A stretch of DNA of 64,000 bases from a virus (IMGVR_UViG_3300020202_000066:1-64000); one strand, 5' to 3'. Positions 41,686 to 47,687 are shown, counted from the stretch's first letter. A program made the numbers and translations. Notes: generated from the sequence alone by a model not told the origin.

Positions 41686-42150
41686 CTAGGGCTCGGGCGC
41701 GATCTCACTCCGGGCAGGTTCGCGCTCCGCCCCGGTCTCGGTCGAGCCGTCGGGGAACACCACGATGCAGGGAACGCCGCTTTTCCGGGCGAAATCGATC
41801 GTGTACCACGTACCGCCGCGAGCCTGGTGCGTGGACTCGCGCGGGCAGCCGATGATGAGGTCGACACTCCGCACGATCGCCCGATTCCGAGCGAAGTGAG
41901 TGGCTGGAGGGGCGACCTCATCGTTGAAGGAGAAGCAACCCTGCCATGGGTCGCCGTCGGGACCGGGCATGGAGTGGATCCGCGGGCGCGGCTGCATCTT
42001 GTCCGCGATGGCGGCTACCTCGACGTCGACGCCGCTGCACTGCCCGTGGACGAACAGTGCCGGGCGGTGCTCCTGAAGGAGGTCGAGCACGCGCTCGCGC
42101 TGCGCAGGCGTCATCCCGTAGCGGGTTCCGGTGATTCCGATTCGGGTCAT
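41686..42150 (-). CDS. SLOG/YspA-like nucleotide-binding protein
   Basis: IGITGTR..HGQCSGVD..RNRAIV..GGTWYTI. Confidence 0.75.
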   Translation of the reverse strand: MTRIGITGTRYGMTPAQRERVLDLLQEHRPALFVHGQCSGVDVEVAAIADKMQPRPRIHSMPGPDGDPWQGCFSFNDEVAPPATHFARNRAIVRSVDLIIGCPRESTHQARGGTWYTIDFARKSGVPCIVVFPDGSTETGAEREPARSEIAPEP

Positions 42151-42199
42151 CGCTGCTACCTCGCGATCTTGGTTTCGAGAGATCACGATAGCATGTCGT

Positions 42200-42409
42200 T
42201 CAGGTGGCGGTCGCTGGCCTTGGACGGCCGACGCGCTTGCACGTCACCTTGAACTTCCGGAACTCCTGGATGCTCAGCAGCTCTGGCGCGGCCGCGGAGA
42301 GGTACACGATCAGCACGTCTCCGGCGCCGACACCCACCGAGACCAGCCCACGAGTGCCGGACTTGTCCAGGCTGGCGTAGAGTTCACGTGCGGCGGTGGC
42401 GGCCGTCAT
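42200..42409 (-). CDS. hypothetical protein
   Basis: Short ORF after last tRNA; GLVSVGVG..LIVYL. Confidence 0.4.
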   Translation of the reverse strand: MTAATAARELYASLDKSGTRGLVSVGVGAGDVLIVYLSAAAPELLSIQEFRKFKVTCKRVGRPRPATAT

Positions 42410-42448
42410 AGCTCGAAGCGTACCAGCTCTGGCGGCAAGCGAACGCGA

Positions 42449-42530
42449 TGGGGCCGTGCCGAATCGAACGGCCAAGCGCGGCGGCATCTGCTCTACAGGC
42501 AGACGGTGGATCCCACTCCCCAGCAGCCCC
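42449..42530 (-). tRNA. tRNA-Tyr(GUA)
   Basis: TCTGC-CTGTAGA-GCAGA, long variable arm, GTTCGA. Confidence 0.85.
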
Positions 42531-42541
42531 GGGAACCGAAG

Positions 42542-42616
42542 TACCGCCAGCGGGATTCGAACCCGCACTGTCACGACTCTCGATCGTGTGCCTCTGCCAG
42601 GTTGGGCTACGGCGGC
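42542..42616 (-). tRNA. tRNA-Leu(GAG), short variable arm, C33
   Basis: CACGA-TCGAGAG-TCGTG. Confidence 0.8.
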
Positions 42617-42623
42617 AAGAAAG

Positions 42624-42707
42624 TACCCGGGGTGGGAGTCGAACCCACAAATGGACTCGCGTCCGCTGGGTCTGAGCCAGCTGGCTATCCCGTTCGCCTA
42701 CCCGGGC
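42624..42707 (-). tRNA. tRNA-Leu(CAG)
   Basis: GCTGG-CTCAGAC-CCAGC, long variable arm. Confidence 0.9.
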
Positions 42708-42723
42708 AAGATGAACCGCACCA

Positions 42724-42796
42724 TGCCGACCCGCGGGATCGCACCGCGTTCTCCCGCTCTTCAGGCGGGCGTGAGGACTACCTTCACCAGATCGGC
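42724..42796 (-). tRNA. tRNA-Phe(GAA)
   Basis: CCCGC-CTGAAGA-GCGGG; T-loop TGCGA. Confidence 0.85.
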
Positions 42797-42807
42797 GAGA
42801 GATCGCG

Positions 42808-42881
42808 TGCCCGCCCCGGGATTCGAACCCGGAACCTTCCGCTTTTGAGACGGATGCCTCTACCGGTTGGACCAGGCGGGC
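42808..42881 (-). tRNA. tRNA-Leu(CAA), short variable arm
   Basis: TCCGT-CTCAAAA-GCGGA. Confidence 0.85.
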
Positions 42882-42886
42882 GAGAG

Positions 42887-42957
42887 CAGGCCCTGACGGA
42901 TTCGAACCGCCACCCGACGGGTTGGAGCCGTCGATGCTGCCGTTACACCAAGGACCT
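42887..42957 (-). tRNA. tRNA-Trp(CCA)
   Basis: GACGG-CTCCAAC-CCGTC. Confidence 0.9.
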
Positions 42958-42973
42958 GAGTGGGGAGTGCAGC

Positions 42974-43049
42974 TGGCTCCGGGAGCAGGGATCGAACCTG
43001 CGGCGGACCGGTTAACAGCCGGCTGCTCTGCCAACTGAGCTATCCCGGA
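42974..43049 (-). tRNA. tRNA-Asn(GUU)
   Basis: Loop CTGTTAA; encoded CCA. Confidence 0.92.
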
Positions 43050-43055
43050 GCGAGC

Positions 43056-43127
43056 TGGTTGCGGGCCCGGGTGTCGATCCCGGCATTCCAGGCTTATGAG
43101 GCCCGGCTGATCGCCGAATCGCCCGCA
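43056..43127 (-). tRNA. tRNA-Met(CAU), initiator-like, reduced D-arm
   Basis: CGGGC-CTCATAA-GCCTG; ends CCCGCAACCA. Confidence 0.75.
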
Positions 43128-43129
43128 AC

Positions 43130-43390
43130 GAGTTAGGGCTGGGCCGTCAGGCCCCGGGATTGAGAAGGCGCAGAAGGCACCAGGCCCATGCGGGCCCGGT
43201 AAAGAGGGGGAGCCGCCACAAGTGCGGCCGTGCAGCGGGATAACGCCGAGGGACGGACGTGGTGGTCGGGAGCGCAGCACCGACCGCGGGCGCTGCCGGG
43301 CGGATCGAATGCTGTCCAGTCATCGGTGGCTCCTCGGGGCACGTCAGGCCCTCGGGGTCGACGTAGGATCCGACGGCGGCGGTGGGTGCA
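43130..43390 (-). ncRNA. unidentified structured RNA spacer (~260 nt)
   Basis: Long-range helices CCGAGGG/CCCTCGG and GACGTG/CACGTC, several hairpins, no RBS-led ORF. Confidence 0.5.
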
Positions 43391-43394
43391 ATAA

Positions 43395-43465
43395 AGGCCC
43401 CAGAGAGAATCGAACTCTCGCCACCGGGTTACAAAGCCGGCGCTCGACCTTCGAGCTATGAGGCC
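43395..43465 (-). tRNA. tRNA-Thr(UGU)
   Basis: Loop TTTGTAA with C-C mismatch at stem base. Confidence 0.8.
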
Positions 43466-43469
43466 GAAG

Positions 43470-43541
43470 AGCCCTGACGGCGGATCGAACGCCGGTCTGC
43501 TGCTTACGAAACAGCCATCCTACCAACTGGACGATCAGGGC
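43470..43541 (-). tRNA. tRNA-Thr(CGU)
   Basis: GCTGT-TTCGTAA-GCAGC. Confidence 0.9.
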
Positions 43542-43544
43542 TGA

Positions 43545-43616
43545 AGCTCTCGCCGGGGGTCGAACCCGGGTTTCGGTCTTACCAAGACCGCGTGCTACCA
43601 GCTGCACCACGGGAGC
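43545..43616 (-). tRNA. tRNA-Thr(GGU)
   Basis: CGGTC-TTGGTAA-GACCG. Confidence 0.9.
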
Positions 43617-43620
43617 GGAG

Positions 43621-43692
43621 TGCGGGTCGAGCGAGTCGAACGCTCTCATCCAGTTTGGAAGACTGGCATGCAACCACCAACATCTGGCCCGC
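43621..43692 (-). tRNA. tRNA-Gly(UCC)
   Basis: CCAGT-CTTCCAA-ACTGG. Confidence 0.88.
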
Positions 43693-43702
43693 ATGAAACT
43701 GA

Positions 43703-43775
43703 AGTGCCCGGCGGGGCTCGAACCCGCGACCTCCTCGTTGGCAACGAGGCGTTCCGCCAACCGAACTCCGAGCAC
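43703..43775 (-). tRNA. tRNA-Gly(GCC)
   Basis: CCTCG-TTGCCAA-CGAGG. Confidence 0.88.
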
Positions 43776-43779
43776 AGGA

Positions 43780-43852
43780 TGTGGCGAGAGGGAGTCGAAC
43801 CCTCGTGACCGGATTCACAGCCCGGCGCCTGTACCGCTCGGCCATCGCCACC
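43780..43852 (-). tRNA. tRNA-His(GUG)
   Basis: CCGGG-CTGTGAA-TCCGG; G-1 encoded, A73. Confidence 0.88.
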
Positions 43853-43870
43853 ACGATCAGCACTCGAACC

Positions 43871-43947
43871 TGGCGAACATGATGGGACTCGCACCCACTT
43901 TCTCCGGCGTGACGGGCCGGCGTCTCGACTGCTTCGACCTCATGTCC
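43871..43947 (-). tRNA. tRNA-Asp(GUC), C33
   Basis: CCGGC-CCGTCAC-GCCGG; T-loop TGCGA; CCA encoded. Confidence 0.82.
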
Positions 43948-43951
43948 GTAG

Positions 43952-44025
43952 TTCGCCCGGAGGGACTCGAACCCCCGAAATGGCTGGGTGTAGGCCAGCT
44001 GCCTTTGCCGCTTGGCGACGGGCGA
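43952..44025 (-). tRNA. tRNA-Val(UAC), C33
   Basis: GCTGG-CCTACAC-CCAGC. Confidence 0.82.
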
Positions 44026-44030
44026 ATGGA

Positions 44031-44101
44031 TGGAGCTCCAGGGAATCGAACCCTGATCTGCCGGGTGCAAGCCGACCGTCCTCCCGTTGAACGAGAGCCC
44101 C
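44031..44101 (-). tRNA. tRNA-Ala(UGC)
   Basis: GTCGG-CTTGCAC-CCGGC; G3-U70. Confidence 0.92.
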
Positions 44102-44140
44102 AGAAAGAGAAACCCCCGGGCCAGGTGAGTGGTCCGGGGG
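44102..44140 (-). terminator. intrinsic terminator of attenuator 1
   Basis: CCCCCGGACCA-ctcacc-TGGCCCGGGGG-TTTCTCTTTCT directly before tRNA-Ala. Confidence 0.85.
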
Positions 44141-44165
44141 CCTTGAGCGCGCTCTTCAGTTCGCG

Positions 44166-44243
44166 CTACAGGGCGGACCACCCGCCGGCATCGACGCCGG
44201 CCGCGTGTGCGGTCGTCCCTGTGTGCACAGTGAAGAGCAGCAT
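44166..44243 (-). CDS. leader peptide 1 MLLFTVHTGTTAHAAGVDAGGWSAL
   Basis: ATAGGAG-N6-ATG; 25 codons; followed by terminator; not in ORF track. Confidence 0.8.
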   Translation of the reverse strand: MLLFTVHTGTTAHAAGVDAGGWSAL

Positions 44244-44282
44244 GGTCGTCTCCTATCACGGTCGTGGCTATCGCGGTGCAAG

Positions 44283-44354
44283 TCCTCGCGGAGAGATTCG
44301 AACTCCCAGCCGTCTGGTTCGAAGCCAGCCGCTCTTCCGCTGAGCTACGCGAGG
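44283..44354 (-). tRNA. tRNA-Arg(UCG)
   Basis: Loop CTTCGAA. Confidence 0.88.
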
Positions 44355-44358
44355 ATGA

Positions 44359-44431
44359 TGTACCCGGCAAGGCTCGAACTTGCGGCCGCCCTGGTAGGAA
44401 CAGGGTGCTCCTCCGACTGAGCTACGGATGC
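44359..44431 (-). tRNA. tRNA-Arg(CCU)
   Basis: CCCTG-TTCCTAC-CAGGG. Confidence 0.85.
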
Positions 44432-44450
44432 AGGAGCCACACACGGGAAC

Positions 44451-44528
44451 TGGTCTGCGCGGAGGGACTCGAACCCCCGGTCTCCTGCTCCCAAGGCAGG
44501 CGCTTTCGCCAGGCTAAGCTACGCGCAG
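44451..44528 (-). tRNA. tRNA-Pro(UGG)
   Basis: CCTGC-CTTGGGA-GCAGG; CCA encoded. Confidence 0.9.
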
Positions 44529-44531
44529 AGA

Positions 44532-44602
44532 TGCACCCACGTGGAATCGAACCACGGGCTCGGTCTTCGGAGGACCGCATCCTTCCTCTGGACGATGGGT
44601 GC
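44532..44602 (-). tRNA. tRNA-Arg(CCG)
   Basis: CGGTC-CTCCGAA-GACCG. Confidence 0.88.
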
Positions 44603-44606
44603 TGCT

Positions 44607-44677
44607 TGGTGCCTCTGTCGGGAGTCGAACCCGATGGGCAGCCTTCGCAGGGCTGCCTCCAATCCCCTGGCAGAAGC
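44607..44677 (-). tRNA. tRNA-Arg(GCG), reduced D-arm
   Basis: CAGCC-CTGCGAA-GGCTG; CCA encoded. Confidence 0.75.
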
Positions 44678-44684
44678 ACGGAAG

Positions 44685-44756
44685 TAGGCCGTCGTGGTGC
44701 TGCCCCACGCTCCTCCGACTTATAAGGTCGGCGCTCTGCTGATGAGCTAACGGCCC
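44685..44756 (-). tRNA. tRNA-Ile(UAU)
   Basis: CCGAC-CTTATAA-GTCGG; atypical T-loop GGCAGCA. Confidence 0.8.
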
Positions 44757-44759
44757 AGA

Positions 44760-44900
44760 TGGCCGGGAAGCGTGGAGCTATATACGCCGTCGGGGAGACG
44801 GCACCGGGGGTGGGCAGAATGGTCGCCTCGGGGCGAAGCTGGTGAGTGCGATGTGGGCGACCATGGTCCAGCGTAGCGCGCACGCGCGGTGGCTGGTGCA
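44760..44900 (-). ncRNA. unidentified structured spacer (~140 nt)
   Basis: 9-bp helix ATGGTCGCC/GGCGACCAT and hairpin GCCGTC/GACGGC. Confidence 0.35.
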
Positions 44901-44905
44901 GATGA

Positions 44906-44992
44906 CGGAGAGCCAGAGACTCGAACTCTGACGCGGTGAACCGCCCGCCGGGTAGCAACCGGGGCCCGATACCAGTTACGGGATAGCTCTCC
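44906..44992 (-). tRNA. tRNA-Ser(GCU)
   Basis: Loop TTGCTAC, long variable arm, G73. Confidence 0.88.
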
Positions 44993-45000
44993 AGGAACAG

Positions 45001-45081
45001 AGGAGGGCGGAGGTGTCGATCCCCGAGCCCGAAGGCCCCACCGTTTTCAAGACGGCTTGCCGCGCCGGCGGCGCGCCCTCC
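45001..45081 (-). tRNA. tRNA-Ser(UGA)
   Basis: GCCGT-CTTGAAA-ACGGT, long variable arm. Confidence 0.82.
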
Positions 45082-45095
45082 AGGAACAACACCAG

Positions 45096-45165
45096 AACGC
45101 TGGCCGGGAATCGAACCCGGGCCGGTACCTTTGCAGGGCACCTCCGCGCCACGCGAATCCAGCGC
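45096..45165 (-). tRNA. tRNA-Cys(GCA)
   Basis: GTGCC-CTGCAAA-GGTAC; U73; reduced D-arm. Confidence 0.8.
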
Positions 45166-45205
45166 AAAGAGAAAGCCCCCGGCGGTCCTGTGACTGCCGG
45201 GGGCT
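45166..45205 (-). terminator. intrinsic terminator of attenuator 2
   Basis: AGCCCCCGGCAGTC-acag-GACCGCCGGGGGCT-TTCTCTTT directly before tRNA-Cys. Confidence 0.88.
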
Positions 45206-45223
45206 CTCGATCCTGCGTCGTCG

Positions 45224-45292
45224 TCAGGGCGTCGAGACTCCCGGCCAGCCGGCGCCGCGGGAACTCGACGAACAGGTGACGATGCGGATCAT
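45224..45292 (-). CDS. leader peptide 2 MIRIVTCSSSSRGAGWPGVSTP
   Basis: ATAGGAG-N6-ATG; 22 codons; followed by terminator; not in ORF track. Confidence 0.8.
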   Translation of the reverse strand: MIRIVTCSSSSRGAGWPGVSTP

Positions 45293-45368
45293 GGTCTGCT
45301 CCTATCCGCGTCGGGACGCGGTGGGTGCACGCTCGGGCGATCGAAGGAGGTTCACGGGGGGGAAGAGG

Positions 45369-45671
45369 CTAGACGCCGACGGAGACGACCTTTCCCAGGA
45401 TCGCGGTCCGCTTGACCCAACCGTTGATGCGGCCGATGTTGTTCCCGATGAGAGCTCGGTCTCCCTGCAGCTGCTTGACCAGATGCAAGAGGAATCCTCC
45501 ACGCCAGCGGACGAACACCGCGTCTCCGACCGCTACGGCCATGGGATCGACCGGCGCGATGGTCACGAGCTCGCCGCTCTCGATCCGGCCGCGCATCGAC
45601 CCCCCGAGCGGACGAACCTTCGCGACTCGACCAGCAGAGATCTCCCGCAGCGCATCCGATGCCCAGCCCAT
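45369..45671 (-). CDS. small S24/S26 peptidase-fold protein inside the tRNA array
   Basis: GGSMRGRIESG..GDAVFV..HLV..IGNN.GRINGW; GGAGGAG RBS. Confidence 0.75.
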   Translation of the reverse strand: MGWASDALREISAGRVAKVRPLGGSMRGRIESGELVTIAPVDPMAVAVGDAVFVRWRGGFLLHLVKQLQGDRALIGNNIGRINGWVKRTAILGKVVSVGV

Positions 45672-45760
45672 CGCCTGACTCCTCCGGCGACCTTCGTGCG
45701 GCCGCCACCGATGCCGGGCGAGTAGGTCGCGCGCTGCGATTCGGGTGCGCGGATCTCGAG

Positions 45761-45846
45761 AGGACCGGAAGGGGATCGAACCCTTCGTGCGCCTCGCGGC
45801 GCGACGGCTTAAAAGGCCGCTGCCGACACCAGTCGGCCACCGGTCC
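45761..45846 (-). tRNA. tRNA with Lys(UUU) anticodon and long variable arm
   Basis: GCGGC-CTTTTAA-GCCGT then GCGCC-GCGA-GGCGC arm; GGACCGG/CCGGTCC acceptor. Confidence 0.85.
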
Positions 45847-45848
45847 GA

Positions 45849-45919
45849 TACCCCCGCCAGGAATTGCACCTGGGTCTCCACGTCATCAGCGTGGCATCCT
45901 GCTGTTGAACGACGGGGAT
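45849..45919 (-). tRNA. tRNA-Ile(GAU)
   Basis: CCACG-CTGATGA-CGTGG; T-loop TGCAA. Confidence 0.82.
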
Positions 45920-45924
45920 GCGGA

Positions 45925-45996
45925 TGAACCCGCCGGGATTCGCACCCGGATGCCCGGATTAAGAGTCCGGTCCGTTGCTGTTACGGTCACGGGTCC
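45925..45996 (-). tRNA. tRNA-Lys(CUU)
   Basis: CCGGA-CTCTTAA-TCCGG; T-loop TGCGA. Confidence 0.85.
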
Positions 45997-46008
45997 AGAG
46001 GAGGGGAG

Positions 46009-46081
46009 CAGCTCCTGATCGTGTCGAGCGATCACCTTCCGGGTCAAAGCCGGACGTGCAGAGCCGCTACACCAAGCAGCC
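46009..46081 (-). tRNA. tRNA-Gln(UUG)
   Basis: TCCGG-CTTTGAC-CCGGA; acceptor mismatch; T-loop CTCGACA. Confidence 0.72.
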
Positions 46082-46090
46082 GGGGGAGAG

Positions 46091-46161
46091 CAGCCGCCCA
46101 GGGAATCGAACCCCGACCCTCTCGGTCAGAACGAGGTGTGCTGCCACTACACCCGGCGGCT
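46091..46161 (-). tRNA. tRNA-Gln(CUG)
   Basis: Loop TTCTGAC. Confidence 0.87.
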
Positions 46162-46164
46162 TCG

Positions 46165-46355
46165 GAATTGATCCAGCTGGTTGACGGTGGGGCGGTGAAG
46201 CGAGAGCAGCGCCTCACTCTTACCCGCCGAGCGCCCTCGGCAGACCCCTCCGCCGACCAGCTACGCCTGGCGTTGCTGGATGGGTTTGGCCCGTCCGGGC
46301 CCGGGAATGCCGGCACCCGCGACGGGCCGACGCTTGAGCAGGAAGGAGCGGAGGA
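46165..46355 (-). ncRNA. unidentified structured spacer (~190 nt)
   Basis: 13-bp closing helix 46250-46262/46175-46187 enclosing two hairpins, plus an upstream long hairpin. Confidence 0.45.
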
Positions 46356-46356
46356 G

Positions 46357-46429
46357 TAGCCCGCCAGGGACTCGAACCCTGCTTTCCTGGCTGAGAACCA
46401 GGTGTCCTGGCCGGATAGACGAGCGGGCC
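46357..46429 (-). tRNA. tRNA-Glu(CUC)
   Basis: CCTGG-TTCTCAG-CCAGG. Confidence 0.9.
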
Positions 46430-46435
46430 ATGAGA

Positions 46436-46507
46436 TAGCCCGCCGGAGACTCGAACTCCGCTTCCCCGTTTGAAGGACGGGGGACTTCACCCATAGTCGA
46501 GCGGGCC
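46436..46507 (-). tRNA. tRNA-Glu(UUC), C33
   Basis: CCCGT-CCTTCAA-ACGGG. Confidence 0.85.
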
Positions 46508-46633
46508 GCGAGGAACGCGAGAAGGGCCCCGAGGGGCCGGCGTTCGAGCGGACCGGTGAGCGAGGGTGAGGAGTGCATGCGCCGGCATAGCGCTGCCCGG
46601 CCGGCGCGGGTGCATGTCGAGGACGACTGCGAG

Positions 46634-46900
46634 CTACTGGCCCGTCGACGTCGGATGCGGAGGCGGGTTGGTTTCGAGGTGCTCGAGCAGCGCGCGTACT
46701 GCGCAATCCTTCGACTCGATCAGCTTCCTGAGCGCCACGGTGCGCTCCGCGCTGCCGGGGAGCATCTGGACGAGCTGGTGAGCTAGCACGCAGTACGGCT
46801 CGCTGGCCTTCTGCAAGAAGAACGGCAGGTGCGCGAAGCGGAAGAACTTCAGCAGGGGCTCGGGGGGCGGTGCCGCGGGGACTTCGGTCGTGTCGGTCAT
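46634..46900 (-). CDS. conserved phage helical-hairpin protein
   Basis: FFRFAHLP..ERTVALRKLIESKDCAVRA; GAGGAG RBS. Confidence 0.75.
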   Translation of the reverse strand: MTDTTEVPAAPPPEPLLKFFRFAHLPFFLQKASEPYCVLAHQLVQMLPGSAERTVALRKLIESKDCAVRALLEHLETNPPPHPTSTGQ

Positions 46901-47056
46901 AGGCAGACTCTCCTCGTGGTCGGAGCCAGAATGACTTGGGCGTCGGTGTGAGCCGCTGGAAGCTCCCCGGCGTCAGGGCCCCGCGTGCGATGGAACCGGG
47001 TCTTGTCCCCACGGGCCTGTGCTTCGGCCAACCTCGACCGTCAGCAGCTCGGGCGA

Positions 47057-47085
47057 ACCGTAGGCGCGCCGGGGCGCGGGCGCAA
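47057..47085 (-). promoter_or_regulatory. sigma70-like promoter upstream of the tRNA operon
   Basis: TTGCGC-N17-TACGGT, same style as the 37.6 and 38.4 kb promoters. Confidence 0.6.
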
Positions 47086-47241
47086 GCACTGTCAGCCGGG
47101 GATAGCGAGGGCCACCAGGCTGACGACCGCGACCGACTCCAGGATCGCGACGAAGTCGAACAGCAGGATGGCTCGCTCCGTCGGCTCGAACGACCTTCCG
47201 TCGAGCCAACGGGCGATCAGGTACGTCACGGATACCTCCCT

Positions 47242-47415
47242 TCAGCGCGGCAGCACGACCTCCGTCGGCGTGTGTCCGTTCACCAGGTAGTAGATCAGCC
47301 CGTGCCAGCCGTAGCAGTGAACGATCCACGCGAGGATCGGGATCCCGATGAGGATGAAGAGGATGAGCACGGCGGCTTCATCGGATGATTCGCCGCGTCG
47401 GTTGAGGCGGGTCAC
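47242..47415 (-). CDS. small membrane protein
   Basis: GTG coupled to upstream stop; one TM. Confidence 0.45.
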   Translation of the reverse strand: MTRLNRRGESSDEAAVLILFILIGIPILAWIVHCYGWHGLIYYLVNGHTPTEVVLPR

Positions 47416-47687
47416 TTCGCATCGTCTCCCACACCGGTGAACTTCACCGAGCAGCGGAGGTGCTTGCCGGGCGTGCTGGCCCACCAGTCGTAGAGCCACG
47501 CGACGAGGGCGAACGGGGTCACGAGGAGGGCGCACACGCCGGCGACCAGCAGAGGTCCGCCGATCAGAAGGATGACCAAGAGCCACGGGAAGGCCAGCGG
47601 CGTGCAGCCGAGCGCAGCAACCCACCCCGGCCAGATCTGAAAGCCCCATCCGATCAGGGACACGATCGCGAGCGCATATGGCATCAC
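47412..47687 (-). CDS. membrane protein
   Basis: Very hydrophobic; GAGGAGG RBS. Confidence 0.55.
   Translation of the reverse strand: MMPYALAIVSLIGWGFQIWPGWVAALGCTPLAFPWLLVILLIGGPLLVAGVCALLVTPFALVAWLYDWWASTPGKHLRCSVKFTGVGDDAK

Follow-up and report, generated by a model that had tools for sequence, protein, structure and literature searches.

The window analysed here is the first 64 kb (64,000 nucleotides, nt) of IMGVR_UViG_3300020202_000066, an 89,959-bp phage contig of 65% GC that is present in soil metagenomes. On its minus strand, a string of genes running from ~47.7 kb to 40.8 kb includes an array of 33 transfer RNA (tRNA) genes, which is divided into three blocks named A, B and C. ARAGORN finds 29 of these genes and the Rfam model RF00005 finds 4 more, one of them weak, and their number, strand, blocks and contents agree with the original prediction, which a model had made from the sequence. 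Two short modules stand within the array, one ahead of block B and the other ahead of block C. Each module consists of the element ATAGGAG-N6-ATG, an open reading frame (ORF) of 22 or 25 codons, referred to as leader 1 and leader 2, and a terminator that adjoins the first tRNA of the following block. This arrangement had also been predicted, and it can be read directly in the sequence. The array and the two modules comprise the following features.

42449..46507, minus strand: tRNA array of 33 genes in three blocks (ARAGORN 29, Rfam RF00005 4)
45760-46507, minus strand: block A, with Glu x2, Gln x2, Lys x2 and Ile
45299..45305, minus strand: Shine-Dalgarno (SD) element ATAGGAG of leader 1, 6 nt upstream of the ATG at 45292
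45224..45292, minus strand: leader ORF 1, MIRIVTCSSSSRGAGWPGVSTP, 22 codons and TGA (45226-45224), with G or C at the third position (GC3) of 19 of 22 codons (86%) by direct count
45234..45246, minus strand: region 2 of module 1, GGCCGGGAGUCUC, codons 16-20, the putative antiterminator strand, predicted to pair with the 5' arm of the terminator
45166..45208, minus strand: terminator T1, GAGAGCCCCCGGC...GCCGGGGGCUUUCUCUUU, a hairpin with a U-rich tail and a gap of 0 nt to tRNA-Cys (45165)
44282-45165, minus strand: block B, with Cys, Ser x2, Ile, Arg x4 and Pro
44250..44256, minus strand: SD element ATAGGAG of leader 2, 6 nt upstream of the ATG at 44243
44166..44243, minus strand: leader ORF 2, MLLFTVHTGTTAHAAGVDAGGWSAL, 25 codons and TAG (44168-44166), GC3 in 21 of 25 codons (84%)
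44170..44183, minus strand: region 2 of module 2, GGGUGGUCCGCCCU, the last ORF codons, predicted to pair with the 5' arm and loop of the terminator
44102..44144, minus strand: terminator T2, AAGGCCCCCGG...CCCGGGGGUUUCUCUUUCU, a hairpin with a tail and a gap of 0-1 nt to tRNA-Ala (44101/44102)
42449-44102, minus strand: block C, with Ala, Val, Asp, His, Gly x2, Thr x3, Met, Asn, Trp, Leu x3, Phe and Tyr

The exact element ATAGGAG-N6-ATG occurs at just these two sites in the window. Alignment of the two modules reveals a common GATAGGAG..GACCATG, a GCCGGC-GG stretch and the terminators, and the bodies of the two ORFs differ. GC3 of both leaders (19/22 and 21/25) is coding-like, and the leaders carry translation-initiation signals, from which their translation is predicted. 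T1 and T2 start 15 and 21 nt past the stop codons of the leaders. They are the two strongest terminator-like hairpins of the 90-kb genome, with -27.6 and -22.9 kcal/mol over 45 nt. This ranking comes from a genome-wide fold scan; a simple terminator scan overlooked both of them.

Each leader, taken from its ATG up to the edge of the terminator, forms a single long hairpin with imperfect pairing, directly followed by the terminator. The hairpins reach -43.0 and -55.1 kcal/mol, with z-scores of -3.1 and -3.9, and 2 and 1 of 200 shuffled sequences, respectively, are as stable. When transcripts are cut before the 3' arm of the terminator and a ribosome footprint of 28 nt is forced to be single-stranded codon by codon, the pairing of region 2 depends on where the ribosome stands. 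In module 1, GGCCGGGAGUCUC pairs with 11 of 13 bases of the terminator 5' arm when the A site is at codons 2-13, and this pairing is gone from codon 14 to the stop codon. In module 2, GGGUGGUCCGCCCU pairs with the terminator 5' arm and loop at A-site codons 2-16, and the pairing is gone from codon 17 to the stop codon. The stability of these antiterminators was compared with two nulls, namely dinucleotide shuffles of the intervening sequence and 1,500 natural segments of the same genome substituted for it. The stabilisation in module 1 is -18.5 kcal/mol, against -8.4 ± 3.3 for the shuffles (p = 0.011) and -7.9 ± 3.0 for the natural segments (p = 0.0027). The corresponding value in module 2 is -14.8 kcal/mol, against -5.7 ± 2.6 for the shuffles (p = 0.004), and the natural segments give p = 0.0093. 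In silico, both modules thus have the geometry of a trp/his-type attenuator. The attenuator architecture of the original prediction finds its support in the folding models: an SD-led ORF within a significant hairpin, alternative pairing, and dependence on the ribosome position.

The original prediction held that each leader is built from the amino acids of the tRNAs downstream of it. This applies to leader 2, where 23 of 24 residues are block C amino acids, but leader 1 follows it less well, since just 12 of its 21 residues are block B amino acids and the remainder belong to block C. Lys, Gln and Glu are absent from both leaders, as had been stated. The modelled sensing window of leader 1 comprises codons 2-13 (I R I V T C S S S S R G) and that of leader 2 codons 2-16 (L L F T V H T G T T A H A A G). 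Under standard wobble, codons 2-14 of leader 2 are all readable by block C tRNAs. Over its sensing window, 14 of 15 codons are so readable (p = 8.5e-5) and 11 tRNA species are sampled (p = 0.0014), and the tRNAs of blocks A and B read zero leader 2 codons. All four Thr codons occur in leader 2, once each (p = 0.035 given four Thr). In leader 1, block B tRNAs read 6 of the 12 sensing codons (CGC twice, TGT, TCG twice and AGT; p = 0.03), and two codons of the same window, GTC and TCC, are without any phage tRNA reader.

When the 33 tRNAs are permuted in their order, leader 2 matches block C with p = 1e-5, and keeping each isoacceptor family together changes this value to 4e-4. The same procedure gives p = 0.08 for leader 1 and block B, and 3e-5 for both leaders jointly. 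With random windows of the predicted proteins of the phage as the null, which uses crude GC3-based gene calls, the joint p is ~1e-5. Among 170 spurious small ATG ORFs of the genome, 0.6% equal leader 2, itself included. The codon match of leader 2 is therefore strong.

The positions of the terminators bear on how the later blocks could be transcribed. The end of tRNA-Arg(UCG) at 44282 is separated from the second SD element by only 25 nt, and the U-tracts of both terminators touch the tRNAs, so that there is no room for a promoter between a terminator and its block. On the minus strand from 42.3 to 48 kb, no useful promoter match came from a sigma70-type scan with relaxed criteria. Because sigma70-like matches are not enriched genome-wide (9, compared with 12 in shuffles), the absence of a promoter near the array is weak evidence. 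The 25-nt gap, the contact between the U-tracts and the tRNAs, and the lack of a detected sigma70-like promoter together suggest that blocks B and C and the later genes would be reachable only through readthrough of T1 and T2.

The two modules probably act as ribosome-mediated leader-peptide transcription attenuators placed in series within one tRNA operon, a reading that rests on the modelled structures and on the codon match. Transcription would arrive from upstream through block A and the gene for a 100-amino-acid (100-aa) protein that follows it. A ribosome would load on ATAGGAG-N6-AUG and translate the 22- or 25-codon leader while RNA polymerase nears the terminator. If decoding is smooth, the ribosome at the last codons or the stop codon would cover region 2, allowing the terminator to form, and termination would fall exactly at the 5' edge of the next tRNA. 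If no ribosome is present, the ORF would fold on itself into a 1:2 hairpin, and the terminator would form as well. If the ribosome stalls early, at codons 2-13 of module 1 or codons 2-16 of module 2, because the cognate charged tRNA is scarce, region 2 would be left free to pair with the terminator 5' arm, and the polymerase would continue into block B at module 1, or at module 2 into block C and whatever genes follow. Leader 2, and in part leader 1, would sense codons for which the reading tRNAs are encoded past the terminator, so that these freshly made tRNAs would end the stall and complete a feedback loop. We infer that the leaders are translated, that transcription and translation are coupled in the host, in which direction the regulation works and what triggers it. 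Since starvation for amino acids is not relieved by additional tRNA genes, a shortage of usable tRNA is the more plausible trigger. That the modules would serve as a sensor of tRNA depletion or of anticodon nucleases, and would be read through under such stress, is likewise what we infer.

Leader-peptide attenuators are known from amino-acid operons, including trpL, hisL, leuL and pheL, and the leaders of thrL and ilvGMEDA are multivalent and sense several amino acids. The modules in the window resemble them in having a short SD-led ORF, a predicted set of alternative helices (a 1:2 hairpin, a 2:3 antiterminator and a 3:4 intrinsic terminator), a region 2 in or near the last leader codons, and an enrichment of codons that report on the regulated product. 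In contrast to these operons, the genes to be regulated in the window are tRNA genes and not biosynthetic enzymes. The window leader samples many tRNA species singly (11 in 15 codons) instead of using runs of one codon, and two modules stand in series inside a tRNA precursor, with the U-tract adjoining the 5' end of a tRNA.

Several observations weigh against attenuation by the two leaders. The match of leader 1 is marginal (p 0.03-0.08) and merits the word suggestive; both of its ATC codons are read by Ile(GAU) of the ungated block A and not by Ile(UAU) of block B, and 16.5% of the 170 spurious small ATG ORFs are as rich in Cys, Ser, Ile, Arg and Pro as leader 1. In each leader, five codons (GCC, GTC, TCC, CCC) are without a phage tRNA under standard wobble. 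All p-values are post hoc, because the pattern was picked out by a reader. The idea that the leaders are made of rare codons was rejected, as their codon usage and rarity are ordinary. In module 2, the truncated fold still has the antiterminator when no ribosome is present, so that the untranslated default state would depend on folding kinetics. Transcription and translation are reportedly partly separated in Gemmata and their coupling has been questioned, which counts against such a mechanism if the host is a cell of this kind. Finally, no relative carrying a module was found in INPHARED, in IMG/VR, or in GTDB genomes and in metagenomes, the last two searched through the 100-aa gene only. In the seven other tRNA arrays that hold this gene, either the next tRNA follows within ~25 nt of the gene or no hairpin with a U-tail precedes any tRNA.

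The hairpins could instead be plain intrinsic terminators, or stabilisers of 3' ends after cleavage by RNase P, that divide the array into tiers of expression. Transcription would then pass them by leakage or with a processive antiterminator of the phage, the ORFs would be incidental, and the codon match would be due to chance. Such an explanation is considered unlikely, although the missing modules in homologous arrays, the lack of detectable relatives and the weak match of leader 1 all fit it. GGAG-N5-8-ATG/GTG is also common in the genome, with 194 occurrences, 113 of them outside called genes. Furthermore, a third terminator of the same style (AGCCCGCCGG...CCGGCGGGCUUUCUCUU) is found in another transcription unit outside the window, at ~86,600-86,500 on the minus strand, ~55 nt past a sigma70-like promoter (TTGACC-18-TATGCT) and upstream of the terminase (~86.5 kb) and structural genes. 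This layout resembles lambda PR'-tR', suggesting that the phage may use antitermination. Because promoter-like matches are not enriched genome-wide, the promoter call at ~86.6 kb is weak. A Q-type factor, however, works only on polymerase that started from its own promoter, and plus-strand genes separate the late operon from the array. Plain terminators would also leave unexplained the significant antiterminator pairing within the last codons of both ORFs, the significant ORF hairpins, the association of leader 2 with block C (p = 1e-5 to 4e-4), and the recurrence of codon-matched leaders in the phiCbK-like phages described below.

The same alternative helices could also work as an RNA switch independent of translation, either T-box-like or protein-mediated, that responds to uncharged tRNA, a protein or a small RNA. 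The alternation between terminator and antiterminator and the antiterminator that module 2 makes without a ribosome are both compatible with it, but a permissive cmscan of 42000-47500 with Rfam matched neither module to any family, whether the T-box or the Thr, Leu, Trp or His leaders. A switch of this type needs no strong SD at ideal spacing, ATG, high GC3 or in-frame stop codon just past region 2, all of which both modules have, and the amino-acid and codon match depends on the reading frame; it is very unlikely. The probability that the ORFs are genes for functional micropeptides, with a terminator for each and no role in sensing, and that they lie beside the tRNAs by coincidence, is put lower still. 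The SD, ATG and coding-like GC3 agree with such micropeptides, and a small gene followed by a terminator is common in phages (e.g. locus L281). The two peptides, however, share only a short G-x-G-W stretch, which is imposed by RNA pairing. Moreover, the conserved DNA strings of SD-ATG and terminator gave no homologous module in IMG/VR, and 26 tRNA genes further along would fall silent behind a terminator that is not followed by a promoter.

An element analogous to the proposed attenuators is found in phiCbK-like Caulobacter phages. In phiCbK (NC_019405 51341-51439; locus L318 4342-4440), an unannotated 32-codon ORF, MSKTYRQFVRQIQVVRNIRAGRSRMADEGFRD, which begins MSKTYRQFVRQIQVVRNI..., lies behind a TTGACA-17-TAGGGT promoter and is followed by a strong terminator and then by tRNAs Phe-Val-Ile-Ile-Val-Gln-Gln. 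This ORF holds CGGGCGGGCC, a near copy of the 3' arm of the terminator. The module is present in 40 records at 71-100% DNA identity, and the ORF is open over 30-32 codons in CcrRogue, CcrSC, CcrBL9, CcrPW and the Brevundimonas phage Kikimora (L319-L323). In these five diverged relatives the first half of the ORF shows rearranged residues drawn from Y, R, Q, N, V, I and F (e.g. MTYRNNVQQIRVRQFN and MTYRQNVQNIRVVRFYR), and the tRNA blocks behind the ORFs carry Val, Ile, Gln, Asn, Arg, Phe and Tyr. Such conservation of composition while the sequence changes is predicted for a sensing leader. Two other terminator-preceded blocks of phiCbK, Glu/Asp and Pro/Pro, show no clear codon match.

The likeness between the Dolichocephalovirinae module and those in the window extends to an ORF of ~30 codons whose N-terminal half consists of amino acids that match the downstream tRNAs, a copy of the terminator 3' arm within this ORF, a strong terminator and a tRNA block. 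The two differ in that phiCbK belongs to an unrelated phage lineage with a host of another phylum and has zero sequence similarity to the window. The phiCbK module also has its own sigma70-like promoter and no clear SD, and is conserved across the subfamily, whereas the modules in the window have no known relatives. The analogue would raise the prior that the modules in the window work and is not evidence on the window itself. The phiCbK leader is a tractable system for testing the mechanism. The genome paper of phiCbK (PMC3556154) does not contain the words attenuation and leader, and no publication on the phiCbK leader was found.

Relatives of the window array were sought at several levels. 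Searches of the array against 50,697 phage records by megablast and distant blastn gave scattered tRNA matches only. With a methyltransferase and two further proteins, of 88 and 412 aa, as queries, tblastn detected no close relative among phages, and a terminase search of IMG/VR gave no match. The peptides of the leaders are too short for searching, so that their relatives were sought by DNA-string scans only. Three DNA-pattern scans of IMG/VR, with the terminator, with SD...terminator and with GATAGGAGNNGACCATG, returned chance matches, with one exception. This exception (L012 9927-10348) lies on an 84-kb viral contig, IMGVR_UViG_3300034065_000170, where a near-T1 terminator, GCCCCCGG...CCGGGGGCUUCUCUUU, stands 2 nt before tRNAs Met-Ile-Phe. 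An ORF that ends 26 nt upstream of that terminator finishes with ...SISMEFAM, in which 4 of the 8 last codons are Met, Ile or Phe, and the fold of this locus is not clearly attenuator-like.

Scans of genomes and metagenomes with the 100-aa protein gave 160 loci, 7 with tRNA arrays and 0 with modules. The gene sits inside all seven of these arrays (L032, L151, L160, L162, L171, L193 and L194). Homologous arrays lacking upstream ORFs had been named in the original prediction as a result that would speak against it. They were found in part, as seven distant arrays that hold the 100-aa gene and have no modules. The modules would thus be an innovation of this lineage and not of the wider array family. 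None of ~50 gaps of at least 40 nt, taken from six arrays in other phages or elements, contained a terminator-like hairpin with a U-rich tail adjoining a tRNA, which suggests that the arrangement in the window is unusual.

In full-text searches of the literature, no description of leader-peptide attenuation ahead of tRNA genes, phage or cellular, came up; the original prediction was likewise unaware of one for phage tRNA arrays. Two known systems come close in different respects. The trn operon of Anabaena sp. PCC 7120 is a silent tRNA array induced by translational stress (PMC8421152) and has the repressor TrcR (PMC10272220). Like the proposed system, it comprises supernumerary tRNA genes that are kept off until translation is impaired, so as to supply a reserve tRNA set on demand. 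It differs in that a protein repressor acts at the promoter with no codon-specific sensing, and in that it is chromosomal or plasmid-borne and not carried by a phage. PMC8421152 uses none of the words attenuator, leader and terminator. In mycobacteria, Cys-responsive small-ORF attenuators are triggered by cleavage of tRNA-Cys by VapC4 (PMC13096801; bioRxiv 10.1101/834739). There, when a tRNase removes one tRNA, ribosomes stall at the cognate codons of short upstream ORFs and the downstream genes are turned on, which is a precedent for attenuation that senses tRNA depletion. These attenuators differ from the proposed ones in that they control Cys and stress genes instead of replacement tRNAs, sense a single amino acid, use leaderless ORFs and are cellular. 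It has been hypothesised that the tRNAs of phages make up for host tRNAs destroyed by anticodon nucleases (PMC10264068).

Why phages carry tRNA genes and how these genes are controlled have been debated for decades, with codon compensation, host tRNA degradation and evasion of tRNA-targeting defences as the main answers proposed. If the present interpretation is true, at least some phage tRNA sets are made on demand and are tied directly to tRNA shortage. Attenuation, which is known for amino-acid and synthetase genes, would extend to tRNA genes, and the leaders would represent a natural, compact multi-codon sensor of translation capacity. A broader generalisation is possible and is offered tentatively: codon-matched leader attenuators may be a general and repeatedly evolved gauge of tRNA supply in phages. 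In the window, two such gauges would act in series, so that a stall on codons of the Cys/Ser/Arg type opens block B and a stall for any of ~11 further tRNA species opens block C. Replacement tRNAs would be released only on depletion of the host pool, e.g. by anticodon nucleases or host shutoff, and would be turned off once decoding recovers. The window would add to this picture a temperate soil phage that has two serial gauges and is far removed from the Caulobacter phages with the analogous element.

The phage in question is a temperate soil phage, and an integrase gene is found on its contig at 34324-35574. The homologues of its embedded 100-aa protein are 60-74% identical in Frigoriglobus, Gemmata, Zavarzinella and other Planctomycetota, and prophage copies of the terminase, at 30-40% identity only, occur in 102 of 267 Gemmatales genomes. 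Because of these homologues and prophage copies, a planctomycete is the likely host, probably one of the Gemmataceae. Contigs from three soil runs yielded the same phage only, and a look-up of RNA runs for this DNA gave none. A single low-depth contig from the third run carries 44205 G>A (plus strand), a synonymous change of codon 13 of leader 2 from CAC to CAT (His); this is one observation and may be an error. The neighbouring genes were searched with PHROG and Pfam, and nothing related to tRNA was found among them. The remaining features of the array are as follows.

45369..45671, minus strand: S24-peptidase-like gene of 100 aa between block A and module 1, with a weak match to Pfam S24
45925-45996, minus strand: tRNA-Lys(CUU), Rfam only
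44685-44756, minus strand: tRNA-Ile(UAU), Rfam only
44610-44677, minus strand: tRNA-Arg(GCG), a weak candidate with an Rfam score of 21.5 bits, below the gathering score of 29 bits
43874-43947, minus strand: tRNA-Asp(GUC), Rfam only

The S24-like gene has a similar setting elsewhere. Planctomycete-associated arrays with the 100-aa gene are found at L032 2598-3773 and also at L162 and L171, and L032 has a full EF-Tu gene inside. In Gemmata and Frigoriglobus genomes, a gene of the same 100-aa type stands directly after tRNA-Ser and tRNA-Arg (L019, L020 and L024).

Upstream of block A, at 46508-46560 on the minus strand, a weaker GC hairpin, GGCCC-CUCG-GGGCC, with a CUUCUC-type tail resembles T1 and T2. 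It has no SD-led short ORF and is perhaps a degenerate third module or a weak terminator. In the interior of block C, a 267-nt gap at 43128-43394 (minus strand) separates Thr(UGU) from Met. It contains a 58-codon ORF (43323..43147) after GAGGAG-N6-ATG, for which there was no family match, and a GC hairpin without a U-tract lies just upstream of tRNA-Met.

In block A, tRNA-Lys(UUU) (45760-45846, minus strand) measures 87 nt and has a long variable arm; its score against the tRNA-Sec model of Rfam, 51.3 bits, exceeds the gathering threshold of 47 bits. Two tRNA-Lys genes of phiCbK are also 87-91 nt long (L318 3140-3324), which suggests that long-arm Lys tRNAs recur across unrelated phages. Outside the window, at 87187-87258 on the plus strand, ARAGORN reports a lone tRNA with the anticodon UCA ('SeC'), which may be a UGA-reading suppressor tRNA or a false call.

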